DNA from: Raillietiella orientalis
Taxonomy: Eukaryota
Direction: 5' to 3'
NCBI GenBank assembly: GCA_036172245.1
Contig: JAYWIR010000012.1
Coordinates: 1,054,001-1,118,000 of the forward strand
DNA length: 64,000 nucleotides
The translations under genes and the position numbers were made by a program. Positions 3,920 through 62,344 of this stretch are shown here, piece after piece. Within the stretch, counting starts at the first letter, position 1; every line of letters begins with the position of its first letter. The notes beneath the pieces were generated by a model. That model was not told the DNA's origin. It was given only the letters and a program-made list of their open reading frames with translations, and ran no database searches.

Positions 3920-4470
3920 CATCTTACAAACAAAAAAAAGGTGGCTACAAACTTCACCGGTTTTCCCCAGTATCCGACTTGCGGTGGGGTGAATTTATTT
4001 TCAACTTTCATTCGTACATACATGCGTTGGTCAATGTCATCGGTCTTCACTGTTTTCCACTTTCCGGGTTGGTCTTCGGGCATCCAGTCACTGAGTTTGT
4101 GTGGGGAATTCACTCACTTGACAATGCTCCTGAATCCTTCGCAGGATATAACAGTACGTCCAAGTGGGAATACGTCCACAGCTTCCGATCCCAATTTCCC
4201 TTTTCATTAATCCTTTCAGTATTTCCACAGCTGGCATATTGTATATTCCGGTCCGCATTTTTGCCCTTTTCATCACGATGCTCGTGATAAAGAGGGCGAT
4301 GGTGATGCGGACCGTTGGGTTGTATTGCCGTACCCTTCAAACATCCCTGCCAGGATCTCCGTCTTGTCCATCCTCTGCAGTCCTGTCACCTCCTTCGGCT
4401 TGGCCCAGTCCCGGAGCAGCGTCGGACGGGTGAGTACGTGGAGTTGGGTGAGTTTCCCAACAGACTTTCC
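3920..4470 (-). mobile_element. Diverged 3' fragment of the same Tx1-like family as 18.2-23.5 kb
   Basis: LHVLTRPTLLRDWAKPKEVTGLQRMDKTEILAG aligns with FHVFTCPTLLQDWTTLKAVTGLQTKGKMEILAG (23.05-23.15 kb). It also shares the 3' motif AAATTCACCCCAC...TGGGGAA. Confidence 0.8.
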
Positions 4471-5574
4471 CAATTCATGGAAGCGCAAGACTGAAGAAAA
4501 GTCTGCCTTCATTCTTCTACACGTAAAGTGTCAAAAATGATTCACCATGAAAACAAATCAAAAAGTCCACGTTACGATGGCAACCGTTAAAGAAAACTGC
4601 GTTCAAAGCAATTTAGAAGTTTATTTGCTACCATGGATTTTGTGAAATGGTGCTGGAAATCGGATGCTACATAGGGAAGTTTGCTTTTCTATTCCGATGA
4701 AGATCAAGAAATAACACAAGGAAGGGAAGGGTAAATCCGATTCTCCCGCAGGATGCTCAATTCCCACGTAAACTTCAGTTTTTAATGGATTGCAGGATTC
4801 ATCCACAATAAAATAAGCTATAAAACTGGAAGGCTTATTCTTTTCGAAGATTTTCGCTACTCTCAAATGAAGACAGAAAATATATCCAACTTATTTAATC
4901 ATTCATGGACCTCTACGCAAACTGAAATTCCCTGACACAGCAATCGGAAATATCTCCTACCACCTTAAGACGAAACTTTTTGCGGGAAAAAGTCATTGCA
5001 GAGATCGCTGGAGGCATGAATTTCGCTTGATTCGCTCTCCACGGAAGAATATCCCTGTATTTCGCACCAGTGAATGCACGGGAGAGGATCACGCGATGCA
5101 CGTGAACGAAACGCCTTTCCAACCAAGGGCGATCAATTTCTTTTGATACTGACGTATCCGATTTTGTTGCTTGAAGCAACGACTTCAACCCAAATGGCCT
5201 GTTGTGGAGAAAAAGACGGTGTCGAGAAAACGTCGACAATCATCACAGGCTGGAAGAACGCATGCAGGACAGAGCACAAGACCCACATCCCACAGCATTT
5301 CGACAAAACACCCACAAGTGATGACCCGAGAGAACGGCACGAGCCATACGAGCTGATCCTTGAATCTGAATGTTCCATTGCGCACGGGGCGTTCTCTTGA
5401 GACTGAGCACAAAGGCCGGAGCTGACCATAAAGGCAGGACGCAAACAGGTATGCAAAGAAAGTAGCAACCTCAGCACAGGAAGTTCGAGTGTCCGAGTCT
5501 TTCGTGATTGTCAAAAGCCAGTGATCAAAAGCTTCAAATTCGCAAAACTGACTAGAGCAAAAATAAAAAGTCCC

Positions 5575-7188
5575 AGGATTGCCCCAAGTCCCACTTGCCT
5601 TGAGGTGAGTTTATCCCGTAAATTTCAAACAATAATTACAATCACACATTTCCGCAAACACTTTGTCAAATGTTTCTGCACACGAATTTTCAAAGTGTCC
5701 ATTTCTTTGCTTGCCATGCGCAGGATTCTCCTCTGTTGGGGAAGGGAGGTAACTAGGGTCTCGAGGGCAGTCCACTCGTTTGGGCAGCATCCTCCATCTT
5801 CTTCAGGATTTAACGGTAGGTCCAGGCGGATACTCTGTCGCAGCTGCTGATTCTAATTTCTCTTTGCAGCACTCTTTTGCAAATGTTGAGACTAGGCACT
5901 TCAACGTTGGTATTCCCGGATTTCGTCCGTCTTATCGCGATGCTCGTGATGGAAAGGGCCGCACAATGGGAATGCATCGAGGAACGTTTCTGCTCCCATC
6001 ATGCCTTCCTGCCAAGATCTCCATCTTTCCTTTCGTCTGCAGGCCGGTCACCGCCTTCAGCGTTGTCCAATCCTGGAGCAGCGTCGGGCAGGTGAAAACG
6101 TGGAACCGGATGTCCCTGTCTCCACACACCTTGCAGAGCTCGTCTTGGCTGCTGCTTGTCCAATGCTTCAGTGGGAGTCACTCAGGAAGCCTCCGTGGTG
6201 CTCATTCGGAAGGTCATCCCGGTGACCATGCCCGGTGGTAAATCGCTCCTCCATATCGTTGTGCCAACCGCTAGCAGGTTCTTCCGTAGCGGTTGGCAAC
6301 TTTGTCCAGTAAACCGTCTTCATTGGCTTCCTCCTTCATTTGCTCGCGGACGATGTCTGTGGCCCCACTCATTCGTCGCTTCACGTTTCCAGAGCTCGCG
6401 GGTCCTGTGGCTGAAGTTTTCGATCGTTTTCGTGATGCAGCGATGCAGGCGCATTCTGTAGCAGCTGCCACTCGTGGTGAGCTGTTCGCAGTTGCGAATC
6501 TTCCCTCCTGTCCTCTGCATCATCCGTTTCCAAGTCTCTCGAGGGGCCCTTGTGAAATAGGCAATCTCCTCCTGCCACAATTCCTTGCTTCGAGGCACTA
6601 TCTGGAAGCGGTGCCTGTCTCGTTTGCCACGTTGGGGTCCATATTCCCCCCAGTCTCCACGCTTACCTATTGAGGGTCTCTCGAGTTGTTGACCAGTTTC
6701 GAGTGGGCTTTGTGCGCCGCATGAGGCCACTGGTCCCAGTCGCTGCTGAGATGCAGGGGTTGTTGCGCGTCAACTCCGTCCACGGATTGATTGCTGCAGC
6801 GACTCCATCCCGATCCCACCTCCCTCTTGTGGTCGACATAGAACTGTCAGCCGCACCCGTGCTTTGTGCTCGCTCCAGAGGATCTTGCATCGAAGCTGTT
6901 CCATTTCCATCCTTGTTTTCTTATCCAATGAACAGAAGGTCGCTCCGAGGAGCATCTTGAGAAGGGGAGCTCCATTCGACAAGTTCGCATACGGCTCCAT
7001 GCTGAAGTCCACGCGAATGTATCGTCCGCTGTCTGGCTTTTCCTAGGATTCGTTCCTCTGGATCTGTGGAGAGAAGCATCTCTGACGTCTGATTCCTAGG
7101 TATTTAAGTTCATCCACCACTCGGCATCCCTTCTCCGTGTAGGCGGAGAGACCCAGGATTCCGATAGGCAACAGTTTCGACTTCTGGA
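5575..7188 (-). mobile_element. 5'-truncated Tx1-like LINE copy (end of RT to 3' UTR)
   Basis: The reverse complement of ~5750-7188 is near-identical to 21963-~23400 (QKSKLLPIGILG..VDELKYLGI, LCRPQEGGGIG, CKVCGDRDIRFHVFTCP). Similarity is weaker down to ~5575. Confidence 0.92.
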
Positions 7189-11700: not shown

Positions 11701-14700
11701 TCGCAAACTGCCTATAGTGGAGCAGCAGTCGTTGCTGTGCCTCGAACGACGATTGCTACTCACATGTGAGTAGCAGCCAGACTTCAAGACGAAACGGAAT
11801 CGGACGATCCTCTCCAAAGTGGTACCCAGTGTCCGTCGGTGAACGAGGAAAAGGGCACCGAATAAAACGAGGCTCAGAAGGAAAAACAATTTCCTTCTCC
11901 TCTCTGATGAGACGCCTTCCTCTGAAGCATGCCCATCGCCTCCTCTCATAGGCGCTTTTTTGTTCCCCATGTGGCAAGATGCGCTGCTTCTTGAGGCGAT
12001 CGCGGAGGACCGGTTCGCCCCATCTTTCTGGCCACTGCTTCCCGTCCAGGTAGCTTGACCTCCGTGCTGCCCGCGCCTTTCCTATCTAAATCTCCAGGTG
12101 AACCATCAGAGCGAATCGGGATCAGCTGCCTCGGCGCCAACTCGCAGTCCTCATGTACTTTTATGTGGTCTCACTCAGGACTGCAACTCTTCTGCTTGCC
12201 TCACCGCATCCCGCAAGCTGCTCTCCACACAGATCTGAGAAAAATTCTTCCGATTCCGAGTTCCGTTTCCCGCGGGAACTCCACTATCGCTGCTGCATCC
12301 TGTTTTTTTCCTCCTCTCAGCATAGTATAGGTGACAGACTCAATGCCTGGGGGTCAGTAGTGACCTCACAACAAAAACCAGTTGCTCAGAGTATTCATTC
12401 AAAGTGCTTTGACGATTCTGAATCTCACTTCCACTCGAAGACCCATAAGAGAAGTAGTAATGCAACTAATAACAGCATGGGGTTACGTATGTCTTGCTCA
12501 CGAATTTCCTGATGATTCAGAATGAGAGGGATGTTAGCAAAGTCTTCCTACTATGGGTCTATTCATTTCGAAAGTCATCTCACTGAGCATCGGGACGTTG
12601 CTAGGCAATGAGCCAGGCACACCATGCCCGAGGAAGAGGCAAAAATGCCCCACGACGGCAAGAAAAGGATAGATATACTGATAGCTGATAATGAAGACGG
12701 AAAGCGCTCGTCATGCTCCATAAACGAAGCCACATCTGCATGAAGCAAGCAGCGAAGCGCCGAAAATGGGCTCCAGCCGCATATCCTCTAATCTCCCTCA
12801 TCTTCTGGAGGAAGGAAGCAGCGTGTCTCGGAACATCCCTTCCCCCCCGTGATTGAATTCAATGAGATAGCTGCTTCCAACCTTGGGAGCAGTCGTGGAA
12901 GAATTCATTTCTGGATTGGCAAAGTGGTAGGAATGTAGAAGCCGTGTTCGCGGCGGATTTTCAGTTTACTGCTCGCACCTATGCACGCACATAAATCTGC
13001 GAAGCAGTTCAGTGTGGAACGGAACTCAGAGGATGTATTTTTGTTGATGTGAATTACTATCACCAGTGCTCAGAGTTGGTAGAAGAAAAAAAGATAGAAC
13101 TTTCGGTGCTCGCTTGAAGGTGGTAGATAGCTCTGGCAAGGCTCTGAAAAAAAACAAACAAACCAGACTGCTTCGTACGATGCTCAGTCCGTCGAGGGCA
13201 GTTTCCTGGGGTTAGTGGAAACAAGACAAGCTGAATAGGAGACTTTGGCTCTCTTTAAAGCCTGACCTTGTTTGCTGGTAGCAGGAAAAGAGCAGTTTCG
13301 TGCTGCCGCCTTCTGTAGGTGGCCACAGGGCTCAACACTCCTCACAGCTCCAACCCGTGTTTGTTGTCCGAATGTTTGAGTTTCAGCGGAAGTAGTTTAA
13401 AATTTTTGCTCGTAGCAGCATTTCGCAATTCTTGTGCTGCTCCCATGGACTCAAGGAAAGCTCTCTGATTAGCAGATAAGCCTTTTCGACAGACTCCTGA
13501 CTGGTGAGCCCGCTCTGTTGTCTCCACACAGCGATCCAGCTTTATTTCGCAATGCACCAGTGTGCGGAACCAAAGCTTTTCTCTTACTGAATTGCACTTT
13601 TGTTAGGAGCTGTTTCTTTTTTAAGCCGGAGGTGTGATTCCATAATCATTTGCTCGAGCTTCTACTACAAGAGTACAAGACCTCTCACTACATGTGGTTT
13701 CAATAAGCATTGAAGATGAAAGCTATCTTCTCTTATTTAGAATAAGCAAAATAAATAAAATGAATGAATAAATCAAAATTCATTATGTGACCTGACCTGT
13801 TCGCTGAGCTCATGACAGTGCCGTGTTGAACAAAAACCTTGTGTAGCTACAACGTCTACGTGTAAGCAGGAAAAAAAAAAAATTAATTATAATTACTTTA
13901 TAAGATTGAAATCGCCGTAGAAATTCGAAACCAGTTCATGTTTGCTTGAAGATTCCCTAAAACTACAGCTTGTGTGAACAAAGAACACTTTGGTTAAATT
14001 GAAGCAATCACAAGCCTGAAACGGAGGAATAAATTTGTATAATTTTATTTTTAGAAATGTGGTTTGTGAAATGTGCAAATAGTGATATCCAAATATGTAT
14101 TATGTTTTTATGGTATGGGAATCTGCCTAGAGTGATTTTCTATTTTTTTCCTAACAAAATGCTTTCTGTTTTGAAGATTGTGAACGCATGATATTTAAGA
14201 TCTGTGCTTGATTTCGTGTACAAATAAAAGTCTCATCTAATAATTATTAAATGCTTACCTAGCAATTGTAACGTCAGCTCTTCAATTGACATTTTAGTGT
14301 TTTCAAAAATACGAATTCCAAATACGATTGGAAAAAAAAAGAAATGCACTTGCAACCCTGACCATTTTGGGAAAAACAAAAGAGAAAGTCACTGAAACTG
14401 GGGCATAAAATTTCACGCTGCCCGGGACCTTGTAACGGCCCAGGTATGGAAAGGAACCCTTGAATTTGCTCCTCAGGTTTATGAAAAAACAGTGAACCAG
14501 CTGGAAGGGAGGATATCAGGTGGTACTTGATTTGGTACAGATACTGAAAATGTTCGCTGCGCGGTAGTACGATGAATTTCAATGGGCCAGAAACGCTATG
14601 ATGAGTGGGAAAGTTCGTTGTCCTTTGTGTGGAAAGCTGAAGAAACGAACCACTTCCGTACCAATCGTCCGTTCAACCTACGACGTGACAGAAACTGAGA

Positions 14701-17700
14701 GCCATTTGCATATAAACGCGTTCTATTATTCCATTTTATGTATTTATTTAGCAATTTCTCACCATTGCAATTTTTATGCGATTGAAGTTCCACGGAAGGC
14801 TGTCGGGCTACGAAAGCTTTAGGGAAATGGCCAAAGCTAATAAATTATGCTTTTGCTATCGAACACGTGGAATTTTACAAGATACTGAATTTTAATTTCA
14901 GTGATTAACCCATGAATCTGTTGAATGTATGAAACAGAGGATTGGTAAGGGACGTGGCACATTTGGATGGATTGATGCTGCAAAACAAGCGGCGTTCAGT
15001 TTTACTGTAATTAGAGCTTGGACGGTCATCTCACTATCGAACCTGTTGAAACGAGCCAATGAGAAAATTTTGAATTCCTGCGATCGGGTTTACCGTTTTC
15101 AGAACTTGTGTACATTTTGCATCCACCCAGTAGTCCACAGACCAAAAGGGATAGGAGACTTGTTAAGTGTTATGGATCTCCATATGATCATGAATCCAGA
15201 ACATTTAAAAATTAATCCCAATTTTAACAAAAGGAAAGCTTTACACATGTGTACCATATGGTAGTTTTGAATAAGATCATTATAGCATGATTATGTTTGC
15301 AAATAGCAACAGAGGGCACAGCTCAGTAAGTGGCCCAACCTCGCTTTTGCCTTTCTTCCTGATAATTGTGCTTACTTATGGAAATTGGATACTCCGGTTT
15401 TCAGTTACTTTCAAAATTATTTGTTACACAGAAACCACAGAACTGCTGTTTCCAATAAGAAAAATAATGCAGCTTATGGCATGCATAAGAAACTAAAAAC
15501 TGCCATAAAAATTTGAATTTCTTTAGGCTTGCATACAAATAATATTCAGAATCACTTAATTAGGAACATATGAGGACAAGGAACTACTGAAAAAAATATT
15601 CTAGATAGGTACACATGTATGTATTTTTTCATAAATTGGTAATTCTTGTAGCAAACAGTTTTTCGAAATTTAATGCCTTGAACTGCACATTAGGAAGAAG
15701 TGCATGTCTAATATGAATTTATTTTGCTTAATTTTGTGTGGATCATACAGGTATTGGGCATTAGATAGCAAATTGATTATATAACTGATCTCAACCTTAT
15801 TGTCTGGACAGTTAAGTCATGCTGAAAGTTATTTTAATCAAGTTGATGCATTCTTATACTGTTGATGCATGAATTCCAAAATTTGAGGCCAATTTTAATG
15901 ACGAATTTAGGCCAATACAGCCTAGAAAGAAATACTTGTACTTGAAAAGAAAAGCACATGTGAGCCCCAGCTTCAGGGACCAAATGATGCACTTTTTGAT
16001 TTTAAGATCAATGCTTAAACTTCAGCAGTCTCTATAATTAAATATAGTAGTTTGGTGGATTTTCATAAGTGGTACATTTCACTTTTGTATGAATATACCT
16101 CATTTGGCAGCTTGTATGTTTTTATAGGAAGTCTTACACTCCAGTATTTGAGAAATCAGTCATCAGAAACTCAGTTATTATCGTCTTAAAGCTTTCGAAT
16201 CAAAGGCAAGACAACTGTATTTAGACAACTGTAGTTTTCTTAGTTTGATTACAGTTTTTTTCTGTCTGATTCATTTTGATGTTTACAACTGCTTGGAGAC
16301 ACATGATCCCAGTGTATTCTTTACAATTGACACTTCTTCCATTGTACATGTTTTCGATCTCCGTCAAAGGGTAGTTTCACAAATATCATTTGCTACAATC
16401 GTAAAATGCCAGCTTTTCTTGAAAGCAAATGAACTTTCTTGAGAAGTTCATTAAAAACTTCACGAACTCATTCCCCAGCCATTGTAATGTTGGATGGTAA
16501 ATACTGCACTTCTGTGGAAATTTCTCCCATAATTTGCAGATGCCTTAAAGATGTGATTTCGTGCCATTGCGAAACTTTTGTGTAAAACTTGGATGCCTTG
16601 AGCCTTTGGCTACTGTTGTGCTGTATTCCATCACTACCAAGGACTACCCACTTTTCTCAGGTGAAAATCTGTTTTCCCCAAAAAATATGCGCCTATTTTG
16701 GTACACAGCTCAGAGAAATAATTGCAGCTTGGCACTCAAAACGGCGAATTTTCGTTTTGCCGAACATCAGACCGAAATTTCGAATAACGCGGCGATTAAA
16801 GTGATCATTCATAAACTTAAAAGGCTAATTGCGGCCCATACGAACGCCGTTTCTAGCGGGACATGCCATTCTATTCAGAATCGCCACCTAACACAAAGTC
16901 CAATCCTACACGAAAATGCAACCAAATGAAACTTTCAGTTAAGTTTCAAATTGACTCGATCATTTCGAATTATGCAACACTTACACCACATTTCCAAGAA
17001 AAACTGGATATAGGCTCTCACATTGTGAAACACCAGTCTTAACTATTTCTTGAAAATCTATTTACTAAAGTTCCGAACTTACGTTATATCGAAGCAGTTG
17101 CAGTTACTGATATAAATTATTACGCATTCGTCAATAAACGATTATGAACCTCCGTTTTAACTTATTAACATTGAACTTATTAAAATTTAGAAGCAATACA
17201 ATTACCTTTTTCTTTTTTTGATATATATCATGCAGGTTTACTGACTTTTTGTTGCATAATAAGTCCTAAATTTAGTAAGTTTGTAATATACTCTTTTCAG
17301 TAAATTTTTAGATTAACAATGGAGATTTTCAGGCCCTTGCTTGTAATTAATTGGCTTTTTGTTTTTGTTTTCTTAAAGCACTATGTACAGATCTTTAATA
17401 GCTAATAATTAATTTAAACGAATCGTTTACAACCATCTCGTACAGCAGTTTGGTATCTCGTGATAGCTTTCCGATTACGCTGGACACGCATGGTATGGTT
17501 TCCTATTTCTTGATTGTCAGGGTTATCAAAATCTCAGATCCACGAAGAGCTTCCTTTCGTGTTTCTGGAGTACTGCTGTCTATAAATGTATGCTAGTGTT
17601 CCGTTTATGTAAACAATACAAAAATGGTCTGTTGTGTTTGATCTTTATCGCACAGAAGTACCTTTCTCGGAGGATTTCATCCTCCGAAAAATATTATTAG

Positions 17701-18077
17701 AGACTATTTAGAGACTGTTAGAGACCCATTATTATTAGAGACTGATGATATACTTATTATTTTCCTTATTAGAGGCAATATCAATGAGTATTTACATCAA
17801 CATCGAGACATGAGATTTAAACTATATCGGCCTTTAAAAATGAATTTCTGGAAGATCTGTCTCAATATGCATATGGTTCCCAATATTGCAAACAGTTTTT
17901 GATTGTGTGAATATTTTTGCATGTGTCCCAGGACACGATTTTGTGCCATTAACGGTTGTTCGCGATAATTCCTTTTTGGTGGCCTGTGAATTCATTATTT
18001 TTTTGTGACTGCATAAGGGGAATCGATCGCATCGACAACGACTTTTTGCGAGTGATGAGGGCAGAATGGGATCTTTT

Positions 18078-18222
18078 TTACTTACCTGGCTTGGAGGCGG
18101 TGTTGGTCACGATGGAGATCCCTCCAGAGTGAAGCTCAACCATTGAACTGCGATTGGGATAACCTCTGAGATAGCCCTGAACGTGGGTTACTCGGAAACA
18201 TAATTTTTGGATTGGGAGACTG
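18078..18222 (+). ncRNA. U1: U1 snRNA-like sequence (variant or pseudogene), truncated in stem-loop IV
   Basis: 5' end TACTTACCTGG; SL I GGAGG..GGTCACGATG..CCTCC (canonical loop GATCACGAAG); SL II loop CCATTGAACT (canonical CCATTGCAC); GTGGGTTACTCG; Sm site AATTTTTGG (18202-18210); then GGGAGACTG. Order and spacing match metazoan U1. Confidence 0.9.
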
Positions 18223-18392
18223 TTGGGAGACGCGGACTGCGGCAAAAAGTGAAAGGATAGCTCTTTAAAATGTGTATCAACATTCTTCCCCAATGAACAG
18301 CGCCCCTCCCCAGATTCCTGGACTCACCGCGGACTGCTACTAATGTACAGAGCTTGAAGATGAGAGTGCCCCCGAGAGGGACAGGATACTGC

Positions 18393-19790
18393 ATGGCTAC
18401 TCCCATGTCAACGGAGGTGTGCCAGCCGACCACCTCCTAGGAGGTAACCGCGCCAGCGTTGGTAACGATGGCGACACAGCCATCGCTGCCTTACGAGACC
18501 GTGGCAGCCTCGAATGCCGAATGCGGCAGCGGCTGCAATGGCGAAGCCGACGAAGTCCTCCATGTTTGAAATCCAGAAAACTAAGCCCGTATGGCAAATA
18601 GGCGAGGAGGTAAGGCGAATCACGTTCAGAACTGCAATGCTGAGCACGCAAACGTGTGAGATGTCACTTTATACAAGAAAAATATGGATTTTAAAGAGAT
18701 ACAAGCAATAGTACCGTCCGCAATCGGAACCATTATGTACACAGCGGACGAAGAACTGCAGGAGACCCTGGTGGAGATGCCCATCATCCTGAACGGAGAC
18801 AGCTGCGGGGATCGGAAGAACTGTCCACCACGGAGGTCTACCTGACCGGTGTCCGCCGTTTCACCAGCCAGGAAGTCGTGTGGGAGTCTTCCTCCCAGAC
18901 GGAGATGTCAAGAAGATTGTGTTCCTCAACCACATCGAGGATATCTTATCAAAGAAGGCCGTGGTGCACATCGAGCTCTTCGCCGATGCCAAAAACCCGG
19001 GAGTCGTCTCCAGCAACGAGCCCTCCCAGCACGTGCAGGTTCTACACCGCCTGCAATCCACATTGTGCACGGGTTGCAAACAGTTTGGCCATCGGCCGGG
19101 AACCTACCCGAAGGCGCAGTGCTTCAAGTGCCGCCGAATGGATCACTTTATTAAGGAGTGTACGAGAGCTTCACAGTTCCACCACTATAAAATTTCGCGG
19201 CAAGTGATGCGTGAGTACGAGAAGTGCTTCGCTTGTTTTGTATTCCAAGGGCTGGCTTCGCTGTCTGCAGTACAGGAAAAAGGAGCAGCAGGAAGTAGTG
19301 GTGCCCACCCAACGCAGGCGTTGACCTGGGATAAATGGAAGTTTTTAAGTGAAAGAAGAACTTCTACTTCGCCCAGTAGCACGACCGAGGAGGAGAAGAA
19401 GATGACCGATTATGAGCAGGAGGTGGTCATACTCGCAAAAACGGTCCCTCCGGACAACACAAAGGATGAACAGAAGGAGGCTATGTTCCGCATCTCTGCA
19501 CTTCAGAGAGAGAACCTAAACAAGCTGGTGGACGAGAAGATGCATCGCCTGCTAGCGAAGGACACTCTGAACGTGACGAAAGCCGATATCATCGAGCTGG
19601 TCTAGCAGGTCTTGTTTCCCGCAAAGACGACGACGAGGGCCGTCCGTCTAACACAGAAGGAGGAGAGCATAATGGACGACACCAGCTACTACATCAAGTC
19701 GGAGAGACAGCGACATGAGGGAGAGACGACCCTCTAAGAGGGGGCGAAGAACGTCTCCCAAAGAAAAGAGGAAGAGCAAAAACGTGGAAT
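18393..19790 (+). pseudogene. LINE ORF1 (gag-like, zinc knuckle), frameshifted
   Basis: ORF 18880-19605 contains CTGCKQFGHRPGTYPKAQCFKCRRMDHFIKEC (tandem CCHC knuckles, the first degenerate). Upstream broken frames give LVEMPIILNG and TEVYLTGV. The start is approximate. Confidence 0.8.
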
Positions 19791-19799
19791 TAAACACGC

Positions 19800-22700
19800 A
19801 TGGCCTCCTTCCTGTCGCCAGTCAGGATTCCGAAGATCGCCTTCCGGAACATCAACGACATGTGGAGCGAGGACAGGAGAAGAATCATGTGGACCATCGA
19901 GCGTGACGATATCGTGTGTCGTCAGGAAACCCACGAGACAAGGCAACAGATCTGCCTGGAACTCGAGAAGCGAATGTACTCCCAGCTGTTCCTTAGCTCG
20001 AACGGGAAGCAGACGGACTCTTGACGAGGCGATCCTCGTCAAGAACGTCATCACGCACACCCTCCTGGTATCCTTTTCCCCATGGCCTGGCTGCATCGTC
20101 GGAGTTCGGATGTCCTGGTCCGGAAACGTCCAACTGTGTCTGATGAATGTGTATGCACCGCATAGGGAGAAACATCGATGCGCGGAAGCTGTGCAGGTGT
20201 TTGCTGCGCAGCAGTTCCGCGCCTAAAGACCGCCGTCGTCGTGTGAGACCTAAACACCCCGAAACACGCAGACCAACAAGACCCACGAGCGAGATGAGGG
20301 GCGTTTTCGCAGCTGTACGATGAATTCGGACTGCAGTGGCTGACAGCCAGCCACAAGCCGATAAACCACGTTCTGTACAGCGAGGACGTAGGGAACCGCA
20401 TCCAGTGGTTTCGGCTACTTGAAACTCTGCTCTCGGATCACTAGCTGCTGCGATTCACCTTTAAGACGGACAACCTCGGAGGAAAAATGGCTCCAGGGCT
20501 GCGCTGATCGGCATGCCCTAATAGCTCTCAAGTTTCCCCACCACCAGCAACTCATCGAGGTGATTCTGTGGGACACAGAATCCACAGAGTCGACGACTGG
20601 AACCTCTGAAAGATACCATCCATATGTTTGCGAACATTCAGTACGGCGAGAGGAAATGGTGACAGGAGGCGTTTTGGGAGTTGAACATCCGAGGACACTG
20701 CCTCTCGAGGTACTGGCACTTGAATTAGAGACGGTACATCTTCCGTTCGGTGTAAGGAAAAGTTGGCGTTCTGGAGAAGAAGAAACTGGAAGCAGGCATC
20801 TTTTTCATCCAGCACGAAGACGAAATGCTCCACGAGCAAGAAGGAATCGTGAAGGCATTCCACAGGCACAGAAGCAGGATGCGACTTTCGCCCAAAGGAG
20901 GCGATCAATCTCCATCCTGCGAAGTGATTGCCGAAGACATGGGCCAACCTCTTGAGCTCAATTCTACTTAAACACCTGCAATCGGTAGAACGCGCGCACG
21001 CGCGTGCGAGTGTCACTAGGGAAGAACACGCTGGTCATTTCTCGTCTTCGCCGTCTATTGTATCTTCCAGTGTGCTGCTAGTTTCCTCCACGGTCAAGGA
21101 ACCTCTCTTAGCGGCGATGAAGCTACGGGAACTGGTGCTCGTACTCAGTCTGCTGCTTCCCGTCCCCATGGAGCGCATCTTTGACTTGAGTGTAGTCAGT
21201 TCACGACTCATCGTATCGTTCGATTCGGAGACGTCCTCCAGGTCACGCTGCGCCTTCCTGCGCAGTGCCTTCTCTCGACTGCACTCTTCCTCAGCCTCCT
21301 CGAACTGCCTCTTGATGGCCTTTATGCGGTTCCCCATCTTGTCAAGCTGCTCTTTGTTTTGCTCGGAAGGTCTGCGTTCGTCTTCCAGCTGCAGCAGCAG
21401 CTTCTTGATGAGTTTGTCCTGCTTATGGGAGTTTTTGGAGTGCATCTAGTTTTCTGTTTGTCGACCATCTCTTTGACGCAGCCATGCGAGCAGACCGGGC
21501 ACGGCACACGTGAAGAGTGTCCAACCCACCATCGGCCACAGCCGATACGTCAGGGACAACCTGGTGCTGGGTTTCACGGATATGGAGAAGGCCTTGGACA
21601 CTGTGGACCACGGAATGCTGCTGAAGATTCTGAGGAAACTGGGCTACCCAGGATACTTTGGCGAATACATCGAGATGACTATGGGGCCAACACTGAAAGA
21701 TCACAATAAACGGAAAAGATATAGACGCAATCCAGATGAAAAAGGCAATCAGTCCGTTGATGCTTGTAATCTACCTGCAGACAGTGTCGTCCCTGATCAA
21801 CAGAGGCGACCGCCTGCAAGGAATCATCATCGATGACGATAGACACATCACTTGGCTTTGCTCACGATCTTCTCTTCTTCGTGAAGGACGAGAGAGATCA
21901 ACATACGTTCCTTGGTGCAGTAGTTGAGTCCATGGGAAAAGGACTGAGCTTGAAGATCAACTTCCAGAAGTCGAAACTGTTGCCTATCGGAATCCTGGGT
22001 CTCTCCTCCTTCACGGAGAAGGGATGCCGAGTGGTGGATGAACTTAAATACCTAGGAATCAGACGTCAGAGATGCTTCTCTCCACAGATCCAGAGGAACG
22101 AATCCTAGGAAAAGCCAGACAGCGGACGATACATTCGCGTGGACTTCAGCATGGAGCCGTATGCGAACTTGTCGAATGGAGCTCCCCTTCTCAAGATGCT
22201 CCTCGGAGCGACCTTCTGTTCATTGGATAAGAAAACAAGGATGGAAATGGAACAGCTTCGATGCAAGATCCTCTGGAGCGAGCACAAAGCACGGGTGCAG
22301 CTGACAGTTCTATGTCGACCACAAGAGGGAGGTGGGATCGGGATGGAGTCGCTGCAGCAATCAATCCGTGGACGGCGTTGACGCGCAACAACCCCTGCAT
22401 CTCAGCAGCGACTGGAACCAGTGGCCTCATGCGGCGCACAAAGCCCACTCGAAACTGGTCAACAACTCGAGAGACACTCAATAGGCAAGCGTGGAGACTG
22501 GGGGGAACATGGACCCCAACGTGGCAAACGAGACAGGCACCGCTTCCAGATAGTGCCTCGAAGCAAGGAATTGTGGCAGGAGGAGATTGCCTATTTCACA
22601 AGGGCCCCTCGAGAGACTTGGAAACGGATGATGCAGAGGACAGGAGGGAAGATTCGCAACTGCGAACAGCTCACCACGAGTGGCAGCTGCTACAGAATGC

Positions 22701-23350
22701 GCCTGCATCGCTGCATCACGAAAACGATCGAAAACTTCAGCCACAGGACCCGCGAGCTCTGGAAACGTGAAGCGACGAATGAGTGGGGCCACAGACATCG
22801 TCCGCGAGCAAATGAAGGAGGAAGCCAATGAAGACGGTTTACTGGACAAAGTTGCCAACCGCTACGGAAGAACCTGCTAGCGGTTGGCACAACGATATGG
22901 AGGAGCGATTTACCACCGGGCATGGTCACCGGGATGACCTTCCGAATGAGCACCACGGAGGCTTCCTGAGCGACTCCCACTAAAGCATTGGACAAGCAGC
23001 AGCCAAGACGAGCTCTGCAAGGTGTGTGGAGACAGGGACATCCGGTTCCACGTTTTTACCTGCCCGACGCTGCTCCAGGATTGGACAACGCTGAAGGCGG
23101 TGACCGGCCTGCAGACGAAAGGAAAGATGGAGATCTTGGCAGGAAGGCATGATGGGAGCAGAAACGTTCCTCGATGCATTCCCATTGTGCGGCCCTTTCC
23201 ATCACGAGCATCGCGATAAGACGGATGAAATCCGGGAATACCAACGTTGAAGTGCCTAGTCTCAACATTTGCAAAAGAGTGCTGCAAAGAGAAATTAGAA
23301 TCAGCAGCTGCGACAGAGTATCCACCTGGACCTACCGTTAAATCCTGAAG
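19800..23350 (+). pseudogene. LINE ORF2 (APE endonuclease + reverse transcriptase + zinc-binding tail), frameshifted and interrupted
   Basis: APE: KIAFRNIND, DIVCRQETH, LMNVYAP. RT: ISIL..D.KTWANLL..L.KHL, FTDMEKALDTVDH, ISPLMLVIY, FAHDL, SLKINFQKS, KYLGI. Tail: LCRPQEGGGIG, CKVCG..HVFTCP. Confidence 0.9.
20985..21460 (-). pseudogene. zip: Captured 3' fragment of non-muscle myosin II heavy chain (end of coiled-coil rod, tailpiece, stop and ~50 nt downstream)
   Basis: ORF 21035-21445 reads KLLLQLEDERRPSEQNKEQLDKMGNRIKAIKRQFEEAEEECSREKALRRKAQRDLED..MSRELTTLKSKMR, matching the MYH9/MYH10/zipper rod end. The tailpiece SSRL..KRGS..DGED resembles Drosophila zipper. Confidence 0.9.
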
Positions 23351-23559
23351 AAGATGAATGATGCTGCCCAAACGAGTGGACTGCCCTCGAGACCCTAGTT
23401 GCCTCCATTCCCCAATAAAGGAGAATCCTGTACATGGCAAACCGCAACAATCGGTGACATCTCGTGGATGCTTACAGAAATGTGTGATTGTAGTTCTTGA
23501 AGGTGGCCAAGGAAATTCACCCCACTGCTTATGGGCTTGGGGAACTCTACTGCGCAGAC

Positions 23560-26030
23560 GGATAACGGAGACAGCAGAGAGGATGAAAGGAAAAAAAAAA
23601 CAATAAAACTACAAACACAAAAAAAAAGAGCTGAAAGAAAAACAGCATACAGAAGAAAAAAGAAGAACCCAAGGATTTCCATCGTCCTAGGCCAATAGTA
23701 ACGATCTCCTCGTGGGGGTCGCTACTGGCCTTCATTAGAAAAAAAAAAAAAAAAAACTACAAACACAAACGAAATAACTTTTAGGGGGCACGGGAGGGGA
23801 TCATGGCCTGCCGGAGGCCGTTCCCTGCATCCTGTCTGAGGATGCCATTAAGTTCCTCCTGCTGTTCTTCAGGTGAGACTATTTTGTTGTTTCTCCTCCG
23901 AAAAACGTGGATGGACGGCGAGCGAAGCTGGTGGCAGACGAGGTCAGTGGAAGCAGCAGAAAGCCGCTCATCCGCATTCTCGTTATCAGTTCCCGGAGCT
24001 GTTTGGATAACGAACCTCTGCAAAAAGACAAAGTCGTCCCACCCTCCCATCCATGTTTGAGAAAAACGCAGCTCACAGCACTTCCTTGAGAAACGACGCG
24101 ACTCTCTTGAGTGAGGCGACTTCTTTCCAAGTGGTCTTCCATTCAGAACTCCTGAGAATGCGGAGGAGGATTGAGGGACAGTGTTTCCTACTGTGCTGCC
24201 ATCTCATTCCAACGGGTTCTGGAAGCACGTGACGGTCCTTCTGGAGAGCGGAAGAAGCACATCCTAGAAAAGAAGCTGCTCGTATGCAGCCTCTTGCAGC
24301 AGCTCGGTTCCCCGGAGATTTTCGAGGCTAGCGTTCCGCTAATGACCTTCGAAGCGAAGTGCAGATGATCAGGCTGACAACGAAAATTCGAAATCTCGAG
24401 AGTCCTGTCTCTCAGGACTTCACCTTTCTCATCGAGCCCAAGCATCAGCCCAAGCATAGGCCCGGAGCGCTTCTCGGAAGACGTTACTCACGTGCAAGGC
24501 TCAAAACCGAGCCTCGACCGTATTCGCCTCGACAAATGGATTCGTTTGCGCGCATGAAGGAAACAACCCTCGAAGAACCGTCGTTGCGAGGAAGATTCTT
24601 CCCCCCCCCCCCCCCCTTCGCGAAGGAACCGCGTTGCCGACTCTTGGCCGAGCTGGGAACGGCCTCAGGGACGGAGAATGCGACCGAGAATTGATTCCAT
24701 CACTTACCTTGCGTGCCGACCGACGGCATTCAGTCTTTGGCTGCTATAATTCCCGTGAATTTCCTCGGACTTCTCTTCCGAGGACCAACACGTGGACTTT
24801 CGCTCACGTGAGGTATCCCGGCCTCAGGAGTCGATCCTCACCAGCCCATGTGAAGAAGCCCCTACGAAATCTACTCTAATTAATTTTTCGATTCTTTTTT
24901 CATCCGCCTGTTTGGACGGGAAACGCAAACACAGAGGTGTGTCTGTTTGCCTTCTCCGGCCAAACATGGATGTTCATCTCATTCCGCTTGTGGTCGAACC
25001 GGTCGCCCACCGTGATCGCTTCAGCACGAACATCCAGAAAGAGCGGAGGGACCGTATGCTTGGGTTCTCCTTGTATTACAAGGCTGTTTGGTTGCCCCCG
25101 GTGACGAGCTCTCATGCAAGCATTCTGCAGGCTGCTCGTAGCGAGTGCACGCCACCCTCCTGGCAGCCCAACAAACAAAAGGGGTCGTCGAAGGAGAAAA
25201 AGGATTCCTCGTTCGCATTCCTCTCAGCCGGCTTTTCCTCCCGCACACGCTTTCGCATCAGTGTTTTCAGAGCTGGTGATTCAAGTTAGAGCGCCCTACT
25301 TTGACCGAAACGAATGGAATCTCTAAATGGGGTTTTCCAGATTGCTGTCGCGCGAAGGGAGGCTTGTAGCAAGCCCCTGAAAAGTTTCCTCTTATTAGAA
25401 GCTCTCAGCTGCTTTTCCTTGACTTACCTGAAGACGGGAAGAAGAGGAACCGCATGTATCGAAACTCCGAGCACAAGTTGAAGTCGCGAACTCCTCCTCC
25501 TTCCCCCGATCCCCTGCCGCCATCCTTTCGCTTTCGGGAGACACGGATTCGAGAGAAACCCTTTGCTCTTTTCAGTCGATGGAAGTGACCCTACGCTATC
25601 CTCTGGAGCCGCCAAGAGATGATAATTTCCAGAATCCATGCAACTAGACCATCATAAACCGTAGAGCATTGCATCTAAAGTTCGCTAATCTTCCGCATCC
25701 CGTACCGCTTTCTGGGTGCAGCCCACGAATAGCGAGTCTCAAGAGAAATCGAATTTGGGGACCCATCCTGACACTCAAGGGTGGGCAAGTCTGCTGTTTC
25801 CAGGTAGCGTCCGCGAGACGTCGTGAAATCAGGGAAATCCGTGACGGCGGCCTCGATCTGTGGAAGGGAACAGGTCCTCCGTTATGTCCTCCGTTGTGCA
25901 GAGCGAGCCTCATCTACAGGAGCGGATTCATAAAATCTCTTCCTCAAGAGTGATCAGGTGTGCAAACCAGATGCTTCACAGTTACCGAGGAATCGACGTT
26001 GGCACCTCGCCTCTGGGAGAGTTACGCCCC
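23560..26030 (-). mobile_element. Decayed L1/Tx1-like element (RT domains 4-7 to T-rich 3' UTR), tail-to-tail with the + strand LINE
   Basis: Minus-strand remnants LSVRMGP (GVRQG-like), AED (YADD-like) and LVLGV (YLG-like). The 3' end CATGATCCCCTCCC plus a T-rich tract has the same layout as 9391-9480. Confidence 0.45.
23622..23752 (+). mobile_element. Short, 5'-truncated poly(A) retro-insertion with 17 bp target-site duplication
   Basis: AAAACTACAAACACAAA occurs at 23605-23621 and 23753-23769, flanking ~130 bp that ends in a hairpin plus a poly(A) run. Confidence 0.7.
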
Positions 26031-26049
26031 CAAGCCGTTTAAGGTGTGG

Positions 26050-26560
26050 GAAGATCGTTCCCGCGCCTGGTTTTAGAGTGCGGTGTCCTCCGTGGACCAC
26101 GAACGGAGGCTAGCCAGTGCCTCTGCACCCGGAAAACGTCCACAGGGATCGGCCGCGGGGGTTCTTCGCGCCAGGAGGACTGCCGGAAGGCGCCGTGATT
26201 GCAACGAGTTGCTGCATCCACACCGTTGTTGCAGCCCGTTATGTGCTGGAGTCCCGAGCGTGACGAAGGGATGGAAGCCGCCTACCTGGGGGCGGCTGCA
26301 AGGCGGTCTTACCTGGAGCACTATGGGGACGATTCGGTGGGGGGATTCGCATGGGGCGCCGTTTTTTTTGAGCCAGGAGGAAGTCCCCGTGCCAAAGATC
26401 CCTGTCACAGTTTTCCTTTATTTGTTTACCCGTTGTCCCTTTCCCTCCCTCTCTGGACTGCCCCTGTAATCGGCCTGCGAGTCGGCGACCCCTCCCCTTG
26501 AACTTCTTTTTTGCTTTGCTTTTGCTTTGGTCCCCAACTTACCTGTTGGTTTCTTGTGGA
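26050..26560 (+). mobile_element. Family B L1/Tx1-like 3' fragment
   Basis: TTCTTCGCGCCAGGAGGACTG..GATTGCAACGAGTTGCTGCATCC aligns with the reverse complement of 53490-53555. Confidence 0.55.
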
Positions 26561-57399: not shown

Positions 57400-60300
57400 G
57401 ACCAAAGGCTGCTCGCAAGAGAACCTCCTCCATTTCGGGATCCCGCTGAAGTATTTGCTGCATTCTCCAGCTCTGCGGCCATGGCGATCCCATGCGAGGC
57501 TCAGCACACCGTCGCGACCCTCCTTCTACTCTCCGAAACCTGGACAATTTGCTACCCTCCTCGAAAGGAACTCCGGGGGACAGCAGTAGTTTTACACCGG
57601 CCGGTCCTCTGGCATAGGCTCGACGCTTAAACGTCACCCATCTTTAGGAGCGGCTGCTTCGGCAGGCGCGTCGTTGCTTACTCCGTAGTGAATTCCGACT
57701 GTCCTGCTGTCCATAGCAACCGACACCTTTTGGGGAACCTACTGAGCTTCGCATCGGATGCTGAAAGTCAACGTTCCGTTTGCTCCCCAGCGCCAGTTCT
57801 CTCAAGAACCGGACTCTGAGAGTCCGATCTTCGGCACCCAAGCAAGAAGAACTCCTCAGCAATTTAATGACTTGAAGTGGATGCGCGATGTGATGCTGTG
57901 TGGCGACAGCATCCCATACCACTTCAGATGAACACCGACGCAAACATTGCTCCAGTTGCTTCAGTTTGCTCCAGCAAACCATGACGCAAGGGTAGCTCGG
58001 GGAAGGTGGGAGAGAGAATTAAAACGAAGGAGAGATCATCTCAAGATTTGGGACCGAACTTGTCCAGGTAACAATGAAGAATCGTAGGGACCTCGGACCC
58101 GCAATTGGGAATTTTCCTGGATTGAAATGCGTGAGATCTCGTCTAGATGCTTCTTTTCTTTCTAAGCGACCAGTTGGGTGGCGTAGTCTTGGTGCAGGAG
58201 CCTCAACAAGTCTCTGCCAGCACCCACACCGGGTTTTGCGTCAGGAAGGCTGCGTGGTGCGGCACACGTTCCCATGTTTTACTGAGGTTGTTGTAACGGG
58301 GGTGTTTGTTCGCTTTCCTTCGAGGCAACACGGAACGCCGAATTGCAGTGTTACACGGCGTAGGTGTGGCGGTGCGCATTCCGGGGTCATGGGATGCAAT
58401 GGTGCAGGGGGGAGTGGGGAGGTCTAAATTGAGAGGCACTCGCTAGCGGTCATAGTCCTCTTGGATGCACACCATCAAATGGCTTTCTATTGGAACAGTC
58501 AGCAGTTCTGGAGGAGCAGGGAGTGCATCTTCCTCCCTGTCACATCAGTGAGTGGTCGCAAGAGAAGGATCGTGTGAGGGAAGGAGCTAAATGAGGGACT
58601 CTTGGGTCGATCTTCGAGGCGGGATCGGAGGGATCCATCCTGCTGGGTAGGAACGTGCTTACAGTAGGTACTTCTAAATTTCCAAATGGTCCCAGCAATC
58701 AGCAACGGACTAAAAGCTTTCAATCTTGGATTAACCAAGGTCCAAGTTCGCGATCTGATGCCACGAGGGAACCCATCAGAGTGGTCTCTACCACGGCTAA
58801 AGCGGGTGCCATGACTACACAACCTTGAGAAACATGATCACGGCTAAGCACACAGCCTTTGTCTCTTATAGGTGTCCCAATCTTCCTGAAAAAGGAGCGC
58901 TTTCGACATCCAAAGTGGTCAGGTGGGTGGAAAATGAGCTCACAGTTTCTGGCTACGGTCAGCTGTTTGTTTCGATATCCTCGCCTTCTTGTGATGAGGT
59001 CAAAGGTCACTCAGAACGGACGTCGTCGCGCAGTTCTACCTTCGCTCCGCGATGTCGGGAGGCGACGACGAAGCACGTGACCAAGGTCTTTTTCGGACGC
59101 ACTCCGTGTTGAGGGTGTTCTTGCCATCGGGAAATAGTTTGGTCTCCGTTCAAGGTGCCCTTCTGCAGTGCGGATGGTTTCAGGACGGTGAGGTGCGGTG
59201 GTTGCACTCTTGCCCTTGAAAGGGAGAAGAAGGCAAGCCCTCACCAGAGGTTACACCAGAATCAGTCGTCATCAGTCGAATTTTAGGGAATCCCATCTTT
59301 CTCTGCCAGCTGAGCTTCTGCGATTGATCCAATTTGTAAGCCGGAACCGGGCATCCTAACCCTATTAAAGGCTACTGCTCAAATACCTCCCTCATTTCTT
59401 ATTCATGTGTGCTTTCTCCATTCATATGAAGGATGAAAACATTTCTGAGGAATGGAGCATCCTCGAATCCGAGTTCAAGGGGAGGCTCCAGATGGCAGCA
59501 CCTATAGTTTTTCTCAGCGATGGATGGGCCAACCGTACGCCGCAGCAGAAGAGGGATCGCAAGAGGATGCTTCGAAACTGGGTAAAGAGAAGGCGCCGAT
59601 GAGATGGACGGCCAGATCAAGGCGAACCTAAGCGCTCTACAAGTGGTGCGCTCCAGAAAAAGCTGGTCGAGAAAGACCATTTTGGAGAATCTCAAGTGGG
59701 AAAATGCATCTTGAACTTCGGAAGAAAGTCGCAAAGAAATGAGGAAGGTCACGCAAAGCGCAGCTGATCCCGGAGCTCTTCGCCATCTGATGCTGCTCCT
59801 TGCAGGCCGAGATAGGCTGCCGGCCTTAGTGCGCATCCAGGGAAACCAATGCAAGAAGCCAATGACGATTTCTCAAGGAACATCTTCCAGCTGAATGAGG
59901 AATGTCTTCACTTTTCATCGAAAAAGCATCGCAGCTGAAGTGGGATGCCTCCCAGAAGCGGGGAAATGTTCTAGCATCATGAGAGCAATACTGTCCTGGG
60001 AGAAGGACAGCTTGGCTCTCGCTGTCCGGAGTCAAGGGAACGGTGGTGTGTGCTCCAAGCCCCAGGGAACGAGGGGATGAGACGGAGCCGTTCCTCTGGA
60101 AGGCAGAGGCGTTTCGTCAATGCTCCTTCTTCCTTCGAAGAAGGCAAACTCACCAGCAGCTCTACAAATTCGTTTCCCTATCCCTCCTCTGTGATGGAGG
60201 CCCTTGCATGTCATGTGCTCCTGAAAAAATTGTGGGAGTGCCACGAGCAACTCTGGACTTATTTTAGGGGCCTCAAATGAACCGACGAGTCAGAAGTGGA

Positions 60301-62250
60301 GGGAGATATAATCCACCCTTGATTTGAGGGAGGTATTCAAAACACGAAAAGGGAATGGGAAGAGTCGGGAGCGGGATGCCATTTCTGGAAAAATGTTCTG
60401 GGATCTCGTACTGCTTTAACACCATGTTGGAACGAGTGCCACGACAAGTAGGGGAACGCTGCTCGGTTCATTTCGAGACTCTACTCTTCCTTTTGATCCA
60501 GATACCATCCCTGAGTACCCGAACGGGCCGATCCACCGTCTGTCGAAGAGTCCACGGCCGCGGTCAGCGCTTCCGCCATCAAGAAATCCTGCCACAGGTG
60601 AAATTCTGCAAAGCGACGTGCACCTCCGCCAGTGGGGTGGCCGTTGGCTTCCGTGGAGCTCGGAATCGCGGCCGCCCTATAATCACAAGGCTTCGCATCA
60701 AGCTGGGTATTCGAAACTAGAGCCACGTCAGACGACCAGTCATACAGTCATCCTACCCACTCATCAAACATTTAACTGCAAGAGGCTGAGAAAACCTCGA
60801 GGCGAGCGCCGTCTCAAAGGAGGACGGAGGGAAAGAGCAAACCAGTTCGGAGAGCTGGGCTCTTGAAGACCCAAGAAAGGTTCTGGGGCCGAAGCTGCCT
60901 CAGTCCATTTCGTGAGAGCGCAATAAGGCTGAGGCCAATAATCGGTCGTCGAAGAAATTGGCTGGTCATTTGCAAAACGCCTCGAAGACTGCGGTCGCGG
61001 CAACACACTAGCTGTCACTTCTGCCTCCTCCTTCCTCTTCCTTTTTTCACTGATTCGTGAAAAAACTAGTTGAATTTGACGGAACCGCCGCCGCCTCTAA
61101 GACGCTGACGTGTTCTCCGTCCTCTCCCTCCAAGAAGGTCGGCTTCATTGAAATAAGGGGGTGGCAACACTGCTGGTGTGCCAGCTGGATACGTGCACTC
61201 GTTTCCAAACTGCTTTTTTGGATGCAGCTTGAGTCTGCGAGACGCAGGAATCGTCGTGTCGTCCTTGCGGAGTCGAAAGAGCTGTCCCGTGCTTTGGGGG
61301 TCGACCAATGGGATCATTTGGCAGAGATCCTGCCGCATCAGTTGCCCGAGGCAACAATGTTCAAGTAAGATTGGACCCAGTGGAAACTACAAGGAATGAT
61401 TCTGCCACCAGCTGCTTCGACCCTAGAAGCATCTCATGAGCTGGACCACGAACTCGTTGAGACATCCGAGATCCACTGCGGATGGACAACTGCTGAAGAA
61501 GAGTGCGTGGAGTGCTGTCTCCCAAGAGGGACATCGTTTTCATGATGAGGCTCAACAGGAACGAGTCCACCAGAGCTAATGAGAAGAGACACCATCCTCG
61601 TCTCCCAAGAGAGAAAAAGTTTTTCCCCCGTTGCTGCGGCAACGACGGCGCGTCATTCTGGTTCGGCGCGGGTGGCTTCATCCTTCCGAGAGCTGCATCG
61701 CGAACTCTCGGTTATTCGCACGGCTCCTCACAGGGTGGCTGAGGAGAGATCCTGAAGCATCCGAGCTATGAACTGTCCTCCGTGATGGAGTTGCTGCGTT
61801 ACCACATCCCGCGCGTCTGACGACCTGCCTCTCCGAGAATCATCCCATGCAGCCGACCAGCCGGCTGCGAAACTGTGTTGGCTGGGTTCATTCGAAGGTC
61901 ATCCCACGAGTGGATCAAATCTCATGACTTTTCGCCGCGGGAGAAACCATCATTCATGTCGGTGATGCGCGGGTGACCTTCCGAGCGCGGGCCGTGAGCG
62001 TGACGTGATTGGACGTCCCGAGGATCAAATCTGCACTTGACTTCTCGCCGCTTCGGCCGAACCACCGCCTCTCGGCCGTGGGGAAGCCAGAGATGGGGAG
62101 AGAGGCCGGAGCAGCATTCGGCACGCCAGAAGGTCTGCCACTCGCCTGCACCAAGGGTGGAGCTCTGAAGGGTCTCGTTCCACCGAACTTCAGCTTCGGG
62201 ATGAGCGATGCTGTTTCATCCGGGAAGTCTGAGTCCATCTCACGAGATCT
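57400..62250 (+). mobile_element. Long, heavily decayed L1/Tx1-like ORF2, probably with a nested minus-strand fragment at ~58.4-59.2 kb
   Basis: Ordered remnants: ATLLLLSETW (APE), APGNEG (KAPGPDG-like), FVSLSLL, PSKKVGFIEI..ASWIRAL. The nested minus piece reads LLIAGTIWKFR. Confidence 0.5.
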
Positions 62251-62344
62251 TTTTTCTTTTTATTTTTATGAAATGCTAGTAGTGACTTCTCGAAGAGATA
62301 ATCACTTTTGGACTAGGATGGTGGAAATCCTTTGGGTTTCTTCG

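Follow-up and report, generated by a model that had tools for sequence, protein, structure and literature searches.

A segment of U1 small nuclear RNA (snRNA) stands directly at the 5' end of an old, heavily decayed long interspersed nuclear element (LINE) in the genome of Raillietiella orientalis. We tentatively read this arrangement, at somewhat under even confidence, as the product of a single retrotransposition in which the complementary DNA (cDNA) of a near-full-length LINE of the L1/Tx1 group had about 147 nt of U1 added by copying at its 5' end. The locus lies in a 64,000-nt stretch of contig JAYWIR010000012.1 (assembly GCA_036172245.1, positions 1,054,001 to 1,118,000 of the forward strand), hereafter the window, and all coordinates are counted from its first letter. 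The identity, the extent and the orientation of the U1 segment are observed directly, as is the sequence of its junction with the LINE, and the observation is real and more than chance. As it stands, the locus adds one more case to a type of event already known, and the host is probably an invertebrate.

What we infer is that both parts go back to one event and that the polymerase jumped. Reverse transcriptases are prone to jump at the end of a LINE RNA. Having come to the 5' end of the LINE RNA, the reverse transcriptase (RT) of the element would have switched to a U1 snRNA within stem-loop IV (SL IV) and gone on copying as far as the U1 5' end; the stretch copied would thus extend from the first or second nucleotide of U1 to the 5' strand of SL IV. 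A second SL IV-like piece at the junction may have been left by a previous jump or by one that stuttered. The unit would later have decayed, acquiring many frameshifts, an antisense myosin fragment and an insert resembling a short interspersed nuclear element (SINE). In a less likely variant, the source LINE would have lain in a U1 gene, and a read-through transcript begun at the U1 promoter would have been retrotransposed.

The U1 segment and its junction with the LINE

The U1-derived segment occupies 18078-18224 on the plus strand and was recognised with cmscan by the Rfam model RF00003 (77.7 bits, E 1.6e-17). Membership of the family was judged by a covariance-model score at or above the gathering threshold, which is 69.5 bits for this model, and the segment exceeds it. 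It is the sole U1 match in the 64 kb, both at the curated threshold and at E<=1. The aligned part comprises the 5' sequence ACUUACCUG, stem-loops I to III and the Sm site AUAAUUUUUGG, and it is followed by only 10 nt where the model has the 28 positions of SL IV. The original prediction, drawn from the letters of the sequence, had described U1 homology that runs from the 5' end through the Sm site and ends inside SL IV, and had proposed a run of the Rfam U1 model as a check; the covariance model bears the description out. The match begins at model position 1-2, and the first position of the copy is a T and not an A. As in an snRNA-LINE chimera, the snRNA lies 5' of the LINE on the same strand, in sense orientation and from its own 5' end onwards. 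The U1-headed reading fits the locus because the sense U1 starts at its own 5' end and does so at the left edge of the whole unit.

The copy retains both the sequence that pairs with the 5' splice site (ACUUACCUG, 18080-18088) and the Sm site (AUAAUUUUUGG). The complete four-stem U1 structure including SL IV, as needed for an intact gene, is absent. The segment is a decayed or divergent U1 copy and not evidently a working gene, since its score is little above the gathering threshold, cmscan marks 12 positions as belonging to non-standard pairs, and SL I and SL II have loops that deviate from the consensus. A barely sufficient score and mutated loops are also what an old pseudogene would display, and they lend some weight to an explanation by two separate events, in which a LINE inserted non-specifically into or right after an existing U1 gene or a 3'-truncated U1 retropseudogene. 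We regard such a chance adjacency as rather unlikely overall. If the LINE had entered a whole U1, the last ~17-20 nt of U1 would be expected after the LINE tail, and they were not seen there, with the reservation that the power to recognise so few decayed bases is low.

The base composition changes at the left edge of the segment, with a GC fraction of 0.354 in the 500 nt upstream, 0.483 in U1 itself and 0.522 in the next 500 nt. An AT-rich block of 5 kb (13000-18077, GC 0.33-0.42) terminates exactly at the U1 5' end, and outside this block the GC fraction of the window is mostly 0.50-0.65.

The missing 3' end of U1, which the original prediction had already looked for in vain, did not turn up downstream of the LINE in an exact-motif search, and cmscan at lax settings (17-29 kb at E<=10, the whole window at E<=1) returned no further pieces of U1; for a remainder of 17-20 decayed U1 bases both searches have low power. 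A U1 that stops in SL IV without a downstream remainder is one of the features for which the U1-headed reading is preferred.

The junction itself (18212-18231, plus strand) contains the motif TTGGGAGAC twice, at 18212-18220 and 18223-18231, 11 nt apart, and an exact-motif count found it nowhere else in the window; the duplication reported in the original prediction is thereby confirmed at positions 18212 and 18223. The second TTGGGAGAC is followed by GCG and then by GACTGCGG. In vertebrate U1 the 5' strand of SL IV continues as GACUGCG, and the native U1 of this species may read TTGGGAGACTGCGG... at the same place. Likened to these, the stretch 18223-18242 (plus strand; TTGGGAGAC, 3 nt, GACTGCGG), as read from the sequence, forms a putative second partial SL IV-like piece. 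It may represent a second, slightly longer U1-derived fragment or a slipped duplication, rather than a plain duplicate. Such a second piece fits the U1-headed reading because it recalls the repeated additions seen in the crocodilian SINEU-2 elements discussed below, and a tandem TTGGGAGAC is unlike the trace of a simple insertion, which counts against a chance adjacency.

The LINE and its relatives in the window

The LINE follows U1 directly, on the same strand, and extends to about 23600. Its presumed 5' untranslated region (UTR) and the broken start of the first open reading frame (ORF1) lie at 18243-18792 (plus strand), a region that is single-copy in the window. The original prediction had placed the likely ORF1 start ~170 bp past the junction; the ATG found there, at 18394, now opens just 15 codons, so that the placement is doubtful. 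The recognisable ORF1 remnant is found further downstream, at 18793-19605 (plus strand), as 270 open codons with a CCHC knuckle at ~19117-19164. Its Pfam zf-CCHC match is weak (E 0.0035; 17.8 bits, under the Pfam cut-off of 20.8), its neighbours in the protein atlas are CCHC clusters with scores <0.9, and a protein search with ORF1 gave no match. The next region, 19794-20520 (plus strand), holds what we take, by eye and from motifs in the translations, to be the remnants of an APE-type endonuclease in three frames; it gave no Pfam match at E<=1 and no PDB match at E<=10.

Remnants of the RT, with motifs 1-7 and thumb, are spread over 21455-22378 (plus strand); they are frameshifted, contain an in-frame stop at 22106 and match Pfam RVT_1 at E 0.0024, under the Pfam cut-off. 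The query for the further comparisons was 21797-22378, read through its one in-frame stop with X. Its five best PDB matches are all human L1 ORF2p, colinear over residues 700-873 and with weak E-values of 0.1-0.52. An exhaustive search of 1.84 billion representative proteins gave two weak matches, namely an irrelevant tandem-repeat protein and P0003, an RT fragment of 191 amino acids (28% identity, E 7.6e-4). A profile built from the query and P0003 finds L1 ORF2p at E 1e-24, a signal that comes mostly from P0003, and no match of the query to longer proteins was obtained. On account of the RT similarity to L1 ORF2p we conclude that the LINE appears to be an element of the L1 superfamily (L1/Tx1 group), for which the label 'Tx1-like' of the original prediction is a candidate placement. 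Towards its end, 22950-23216 (plus strand) encodes the putative C-terminal Cys/His motif region of ORF2, with the motif near 23000-23100; in translation this region shares 42% amino acid identity (E 7e-26) with positions 4097-4450 (minus strand) of a related element, LINE-X. A 3' UTR motif at 23513-23546 (plus strand), established by alignment, shuffles and pattern search, is common to three LINE copies in the window, and the element closes with an A-rich tail at 23591-23609 (plus strand; 10 A, then CAATAAAAC).

Because ORF1 is retained, the LINE is near full length and its join with U1 falls at the end of the LINE RNA or close to it. A jump at the end of the template fits for the same reason. 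An explanation by two independent events, in contrast, requires a LINE complete at its 5' end to abut, with matching orientation, a 147-nt target precisely where that target is truncated.

The two other copies are both 5'-truncated and lie on the minus strand. The first, at 5560-7188, was delimited by self-comparison and alignment, and the second, at 3960-4478, is LINE-X, a related family recognised by tblastx (42% amino acid identity, E 7e-26). The 3' UTR motif links all three copies, with pairwise scores that were reached by 0 of 500 shuffles. Self-comparison of the window revealed no second copy of the LINE 5' region 18225-21962. Positions 5711-7188 (minus strand) and 21963-23440 (plus strand) form a block of 1478 bp that is 98.6% identical, without indels and with identical broken frames; past the block, identity falls sharply to ~60% in the 3' UTR, which is still alignable for ~150 nt. 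This pattern points to gene conversion, to a duplication of recent date or to an already dead master, copied with a swapped 3' UTR.

The block of 1.48 kb, so nearly identical to a distant copy and ending in so sharp a drop, is also one of the points in favour of a rearrangement at the DNA level or of a faulty assembly join, by which deletion, recombination or mis-assembly in a repeat-rich region would have brought U1 and LINE together. The patchwork nature of the region, with an antisense gene fragment inside the LINE, speaks for it too, as does the finding of target-site duplications for none of the three LINE copies. Against it, 18224 carries no breakpoint mark, the junction is a short tandem repeat of U1 sequence and not unrelated filler, and the window contains no N. 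We consider this explanation very unlikely.

The other copies also bear on whether the LINE family targets U1 genes. Neither of them, at 5560-7188 or 3960-4478, has U1 at either flank (cmscan at E<=1, and reading), and past the element's own 3' UTR motif the three copies have unrelated 3' flanks. The occurrence of other members of the group in unrelated sequence favours a chance adjacency, as does the mosaic of unrelated insertions, myosin fragment and SINE-like insert, that makes up the locus.

The 5' boundary of LINE-X, at 4452-4477 (minus strand), agrees with the U1 junction at 22 of 24 aligned bases, apart from a gap of 2 nt, a score reached by 0 of 500 shuffles; no other non-self stretch of the window matches the junction as well (score 15, against 12-14 in five shuffled windows). 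A 5' flank shared between LINE-X and the main copy would have argued for targeting. The stretch was rejected as such a flank and is element sequence, because it and the ORF2 Cys motif of the main copy (E-L-x-K-x-x-G, then H-V-x-T-x-P-T-L-L) line up in the same frame; its likeness to the U1 junction is best read as an unexplained coincidence. Mimicry of U1 SL IV by the LINE was considered as well. It found no support for the interior of the LINE (best junction score 12, within the shuffle range of 10-16) or for the three LINE 3' ends, their scores being reached by 11, 256 and 241 of 500 shuffles, respectively.

Several observations weigh against the preference for a U1-headed retrocopy. The LINE 5' region is known from one copy, and the 5' end of the element is a presumed one. 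A U1 gene or pseudogene struck by chance would look alike at this resolution. The order of truncation is the reverse of that in U6/L1 chimeras, with a 3'-truncated U1 and a near-full LINE. The U1 origin of the second piece at the junction is putative, suggested by a motif of SL IV, and cmscan of 18219-18330 alone found no U1. Finally, the A-rich tail at 23591-23609 that a retrotransposed chimera should have is present, and no accompanying duplication rises above chance, in an element that is old and has a disturbed 3' flank. k-mer comparison found no target-site duplication around U1 plus LINE. The 5' flank of the unit matches four candidate 3' flanks at chance level (189-285 of 300 shuffles reach the scores), and in a comparison with 23.4-28.5 kb its best score of 8.5 was equalled or exceeded by most of 100 shuffles. 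This lack of a target-site duplication bracketing the whole unit is a further point for two separate events. The searches around the other two LINE copies likewise gave target-site duplications at chance level only.

Precedents among snRNA-associated elements

Spliceosomal snRNA sequences adjoin mobile elements in several published systems. Three crocodilian Tx1-Mar families (Tx1-2_Crp, Tx1-2B_Crp, Tx1-4_AMi) possess U1-derived heads (Kojima 2015, PMC4494074). In addition, 26 crocodilian SINEU-2 copies bear extra U1-like 5' extensions whose 3' truncation points vary by up to 22 nt, and the occasional homology at their junctions was attributed to template switching (PMC4494074). The present locus resembles these elements in having sense U1 at the 5' end of a LINE of the L1/Tx1 group, and the crocodilian Tx1 and SINEU elements offer a parallel to its repeated U1 additions and short junction homology, for which template switching was proposed (PMC4494074). 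The crocodilian head differs in being a family feature, present in numerous copies and much like that of SINEU-2 (PMC4494074), whereas here a near-complete U1 (~147 nt) was found in a single copy, in a probable invertebrate and on a LINE that is a candidate member of Tx1.

Chimeras of L1 with the snRNAs U1 to U6 are known from mammals (2025 preprint, PMC11838501; also cited in PMC4494074), and near-full-length L1s tend to gain appended 5' sequence (PMC11838501). These chimeras share with the present locus a sense snRNA 5' of the LINE and are formed in one LINE-mediated retrotransposition (PMC11838501). In U6/L1 chimeras, the best studied of them, however, U6 is typically full length and L1 strongly 5'-truncated, and a target-site duplication and a poly(A) tail are present (PMC11838501); here it is U1 that lacks its 3' end, beside a LINE of nearly full length, and a target-site duplication could not be detected. 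LINE chimeras formed by template switching are found outside mammals, too. The MGL LINE of Magnaporthe produces them when the template is switched once or twice at preferred sites, although with a fungal non-coding RNA or a SINE as partner and not U1, and with direct repeats flanking the tripartite element (PMC2104539).

A different relationship between LINEs and snRNAs is found in elements that insert specifically into snRNA genes, such as Keno, of the Tx1 clade, and Utopia, both of which use U2 (PMC4494074; PMC4640811). The targets named for the Tx1 clade are U2, U5, 5S, satellites, microsatellites and transposons (PMC4494074). By analogy, the endonuclease of the present family would cut U1 genes in SL IV, and the U1 3' end would have been lost by deletion at the target. 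The U2-, U5- and 5S-specific lineages of Tx1 (PMC4494074) lend this idea plausibility, and so do the common orientation of LINE and U1 and the position of the site in a structured, conserved part of U1; the likeness to Keno and Utopia is that of a LINE beside the sequence of a spliceosomal snRNA, in a candidate clade with known targets of this sort. In Keno and Utopia, however, many copies occupy the same insertion site and both halves of the target flank the element. A search of the whole window found only the 5' part of U1 here, its 3' half being absent, and neither of the two other copies lies in U1. Targeting is disfavoured because it predicts both U1 halves and the same site in other copies. 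The absence of U1 from the flanks of two copies speaks against strict specificity in a sample of only three, the three 3' flanks have nothing in common but the element's own 3' UTR motif, and the missing 3' remainder counts for less than it might, given how hard 17-20 decayed bases are to recognise. The window moreover contains a single U1 in 64 kb. The literature searched, largely without subscription journals and Repbase Reports, contained no description of a U1-specific LINE in its accessible parts; what it did contain were the Dada-U1 elements of zebrafish, which are DNA transposons with U1 as a true target and duplications of 6-7 bp (PMC8869645). Dada-U1 resembles the present locus in tying mobile elements to U1 genes and differs in not being a retroelement (PMC8869645). 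No part of the window demonstrates that U1 genes are a target of the LINE, and we hold targeting to be improbable.

The original prediction had left the choice between a U1-headed chimera and a U1-targeting family undecided. Of these, the chimera fits the orientation, the left edge, the near-full LINE and the precedents, while targeting is at odds with the missing 3' remainder, the two copies outside U1 and the unrelated 3' flanks.

Later insertions, other features and significance

Two foreign sequences interrupt or adjoin the LINE. An antisense fragment of a non-muscle myosin II heavy chain, comprising the last ~137 codons to the stop, lies at 21038-21445, possibly to 21475 (minus strand), between RT motifs 0 and 1. 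It matches Pfam Myosin_tail_1 with E 1.6e-27 (profile positions 994-1081 of 1081), and its best matches are the non-muscle myosins II of arthropods (49-59% identity). Through this best match the host label 'invertebrate' of the original prediction receives slight support. The fragment has an intact frame of 136 codons and no poly(A), and the LINE around it is full of frameshifts. As its frame is intact amid a frameshifted LINE, the fragment may be the younger of the two. Candidate origins are a cDNA or DNA captured at a break, or twin priming. No other myosin exons were detected in the 64 kb by tblastn with four full-length myosins against the whole window. Pfam scans found no myosin in 150 ORFs of at least 100 amino acids on both strands of ~1-17 and 24-51 kb, none in 28 ORFs of that size in ~50.5-59.1 kb (with ~59.4-64 kb outside the scan), and none in 93 minus-strand ORFs of 50-99 amino acids in 21.4-40 kb; among 23 ORFs across the LINE region the fragment itself was the only match. 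Outside the LINE and the myosin fragment, the ORFs scanned contained no Pfam domain.

The second insert, at 23622-23753 (plus strand), is SINE-like, 132 nt long and provided with an A18 tail, and it lies within the A-rich tail of the LINE or immediately behind it. It is bracketed by a perfect 17-nt duplication, AAAACTACAAACACAAA, at 23605-23621 and 23754-23770. A second copy at 62250-62369 (minus strand) shares 74% mean column identity with it, and the head of the SINE-like element has no match in Rfam. The insert is later than the LINE and obscures the LINE 3' flank, in agreement with the original prediction, which had supposed the 3' junction to be hidden by another element. As the 17-nt duplication shows, this genome has undergone retroposition that depends on poly(A) and leaves long target duplications.

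Two further features of the window were noted. A fragment of eukaryotic large subunit (LSU) ribosomal RNA (rRNA), 149 nt long, is found at 57614-57762 (minus strand; Rfam RF02543, model positions 1184-1345 of 3401, 61.4 bits). It is isolated, with no rRNA nearby and flanks without an obvious tail or LINE, and it is probably a decayed rRNA retropseudogene. Downstream of the LINE, three 9-mers lie within 1.2 kb. The exact 9-mer ACTTACCTG occurs on the plus strand at 25422-25430 and 26537-26545, where the minus strand reads CAGGTAAGT, a perfect 5' splice-site consensus; CTTACCTGG occurs on the plus strand at 26308-26316, where the minus strand reads CCAGGTAAG. The three could mark exons of an unrecognised minus-strand gene or belong to repeats; nothing was found by Pfam in the ORFs around 25422-26545.

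As a single decayed copy, the U1-headed LINE is an ordinary by-product of LINE reverse transcription, with no evident consequence for the host. A more far-reaching possibility, which we think doubtful, is an invertebrate (arthropod-like) lineage of L1/Tx1-group LINEs with a heritable relation to U1, either through insertion into SL IV or through a standing U1 module of ~147 nt at the 5' end. Insertion into SL IV would be a target specificity that the literature searched does not describe for any LINE. A standing module of 147 nt, with the U1 5' end, SL I-III and the Sm site, would be much longer than the crocodilian heads, and could recruit proteins of the U1 small nuclear ribonucleoprotein (snRNP) or make use of the promoters of U1 genes. 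Should the junction prove recurrent in the genome, U1-headed LINEs would extend from crocodilians to an invertebrate or, alternatively, U1 would be added to the known snRNA targets of LINEs, U2 and U5. Recurrence would moreover make the locus a natural setting in which to study the acquisition of spliceosomal RNAs by LINE reverse transcriptases.

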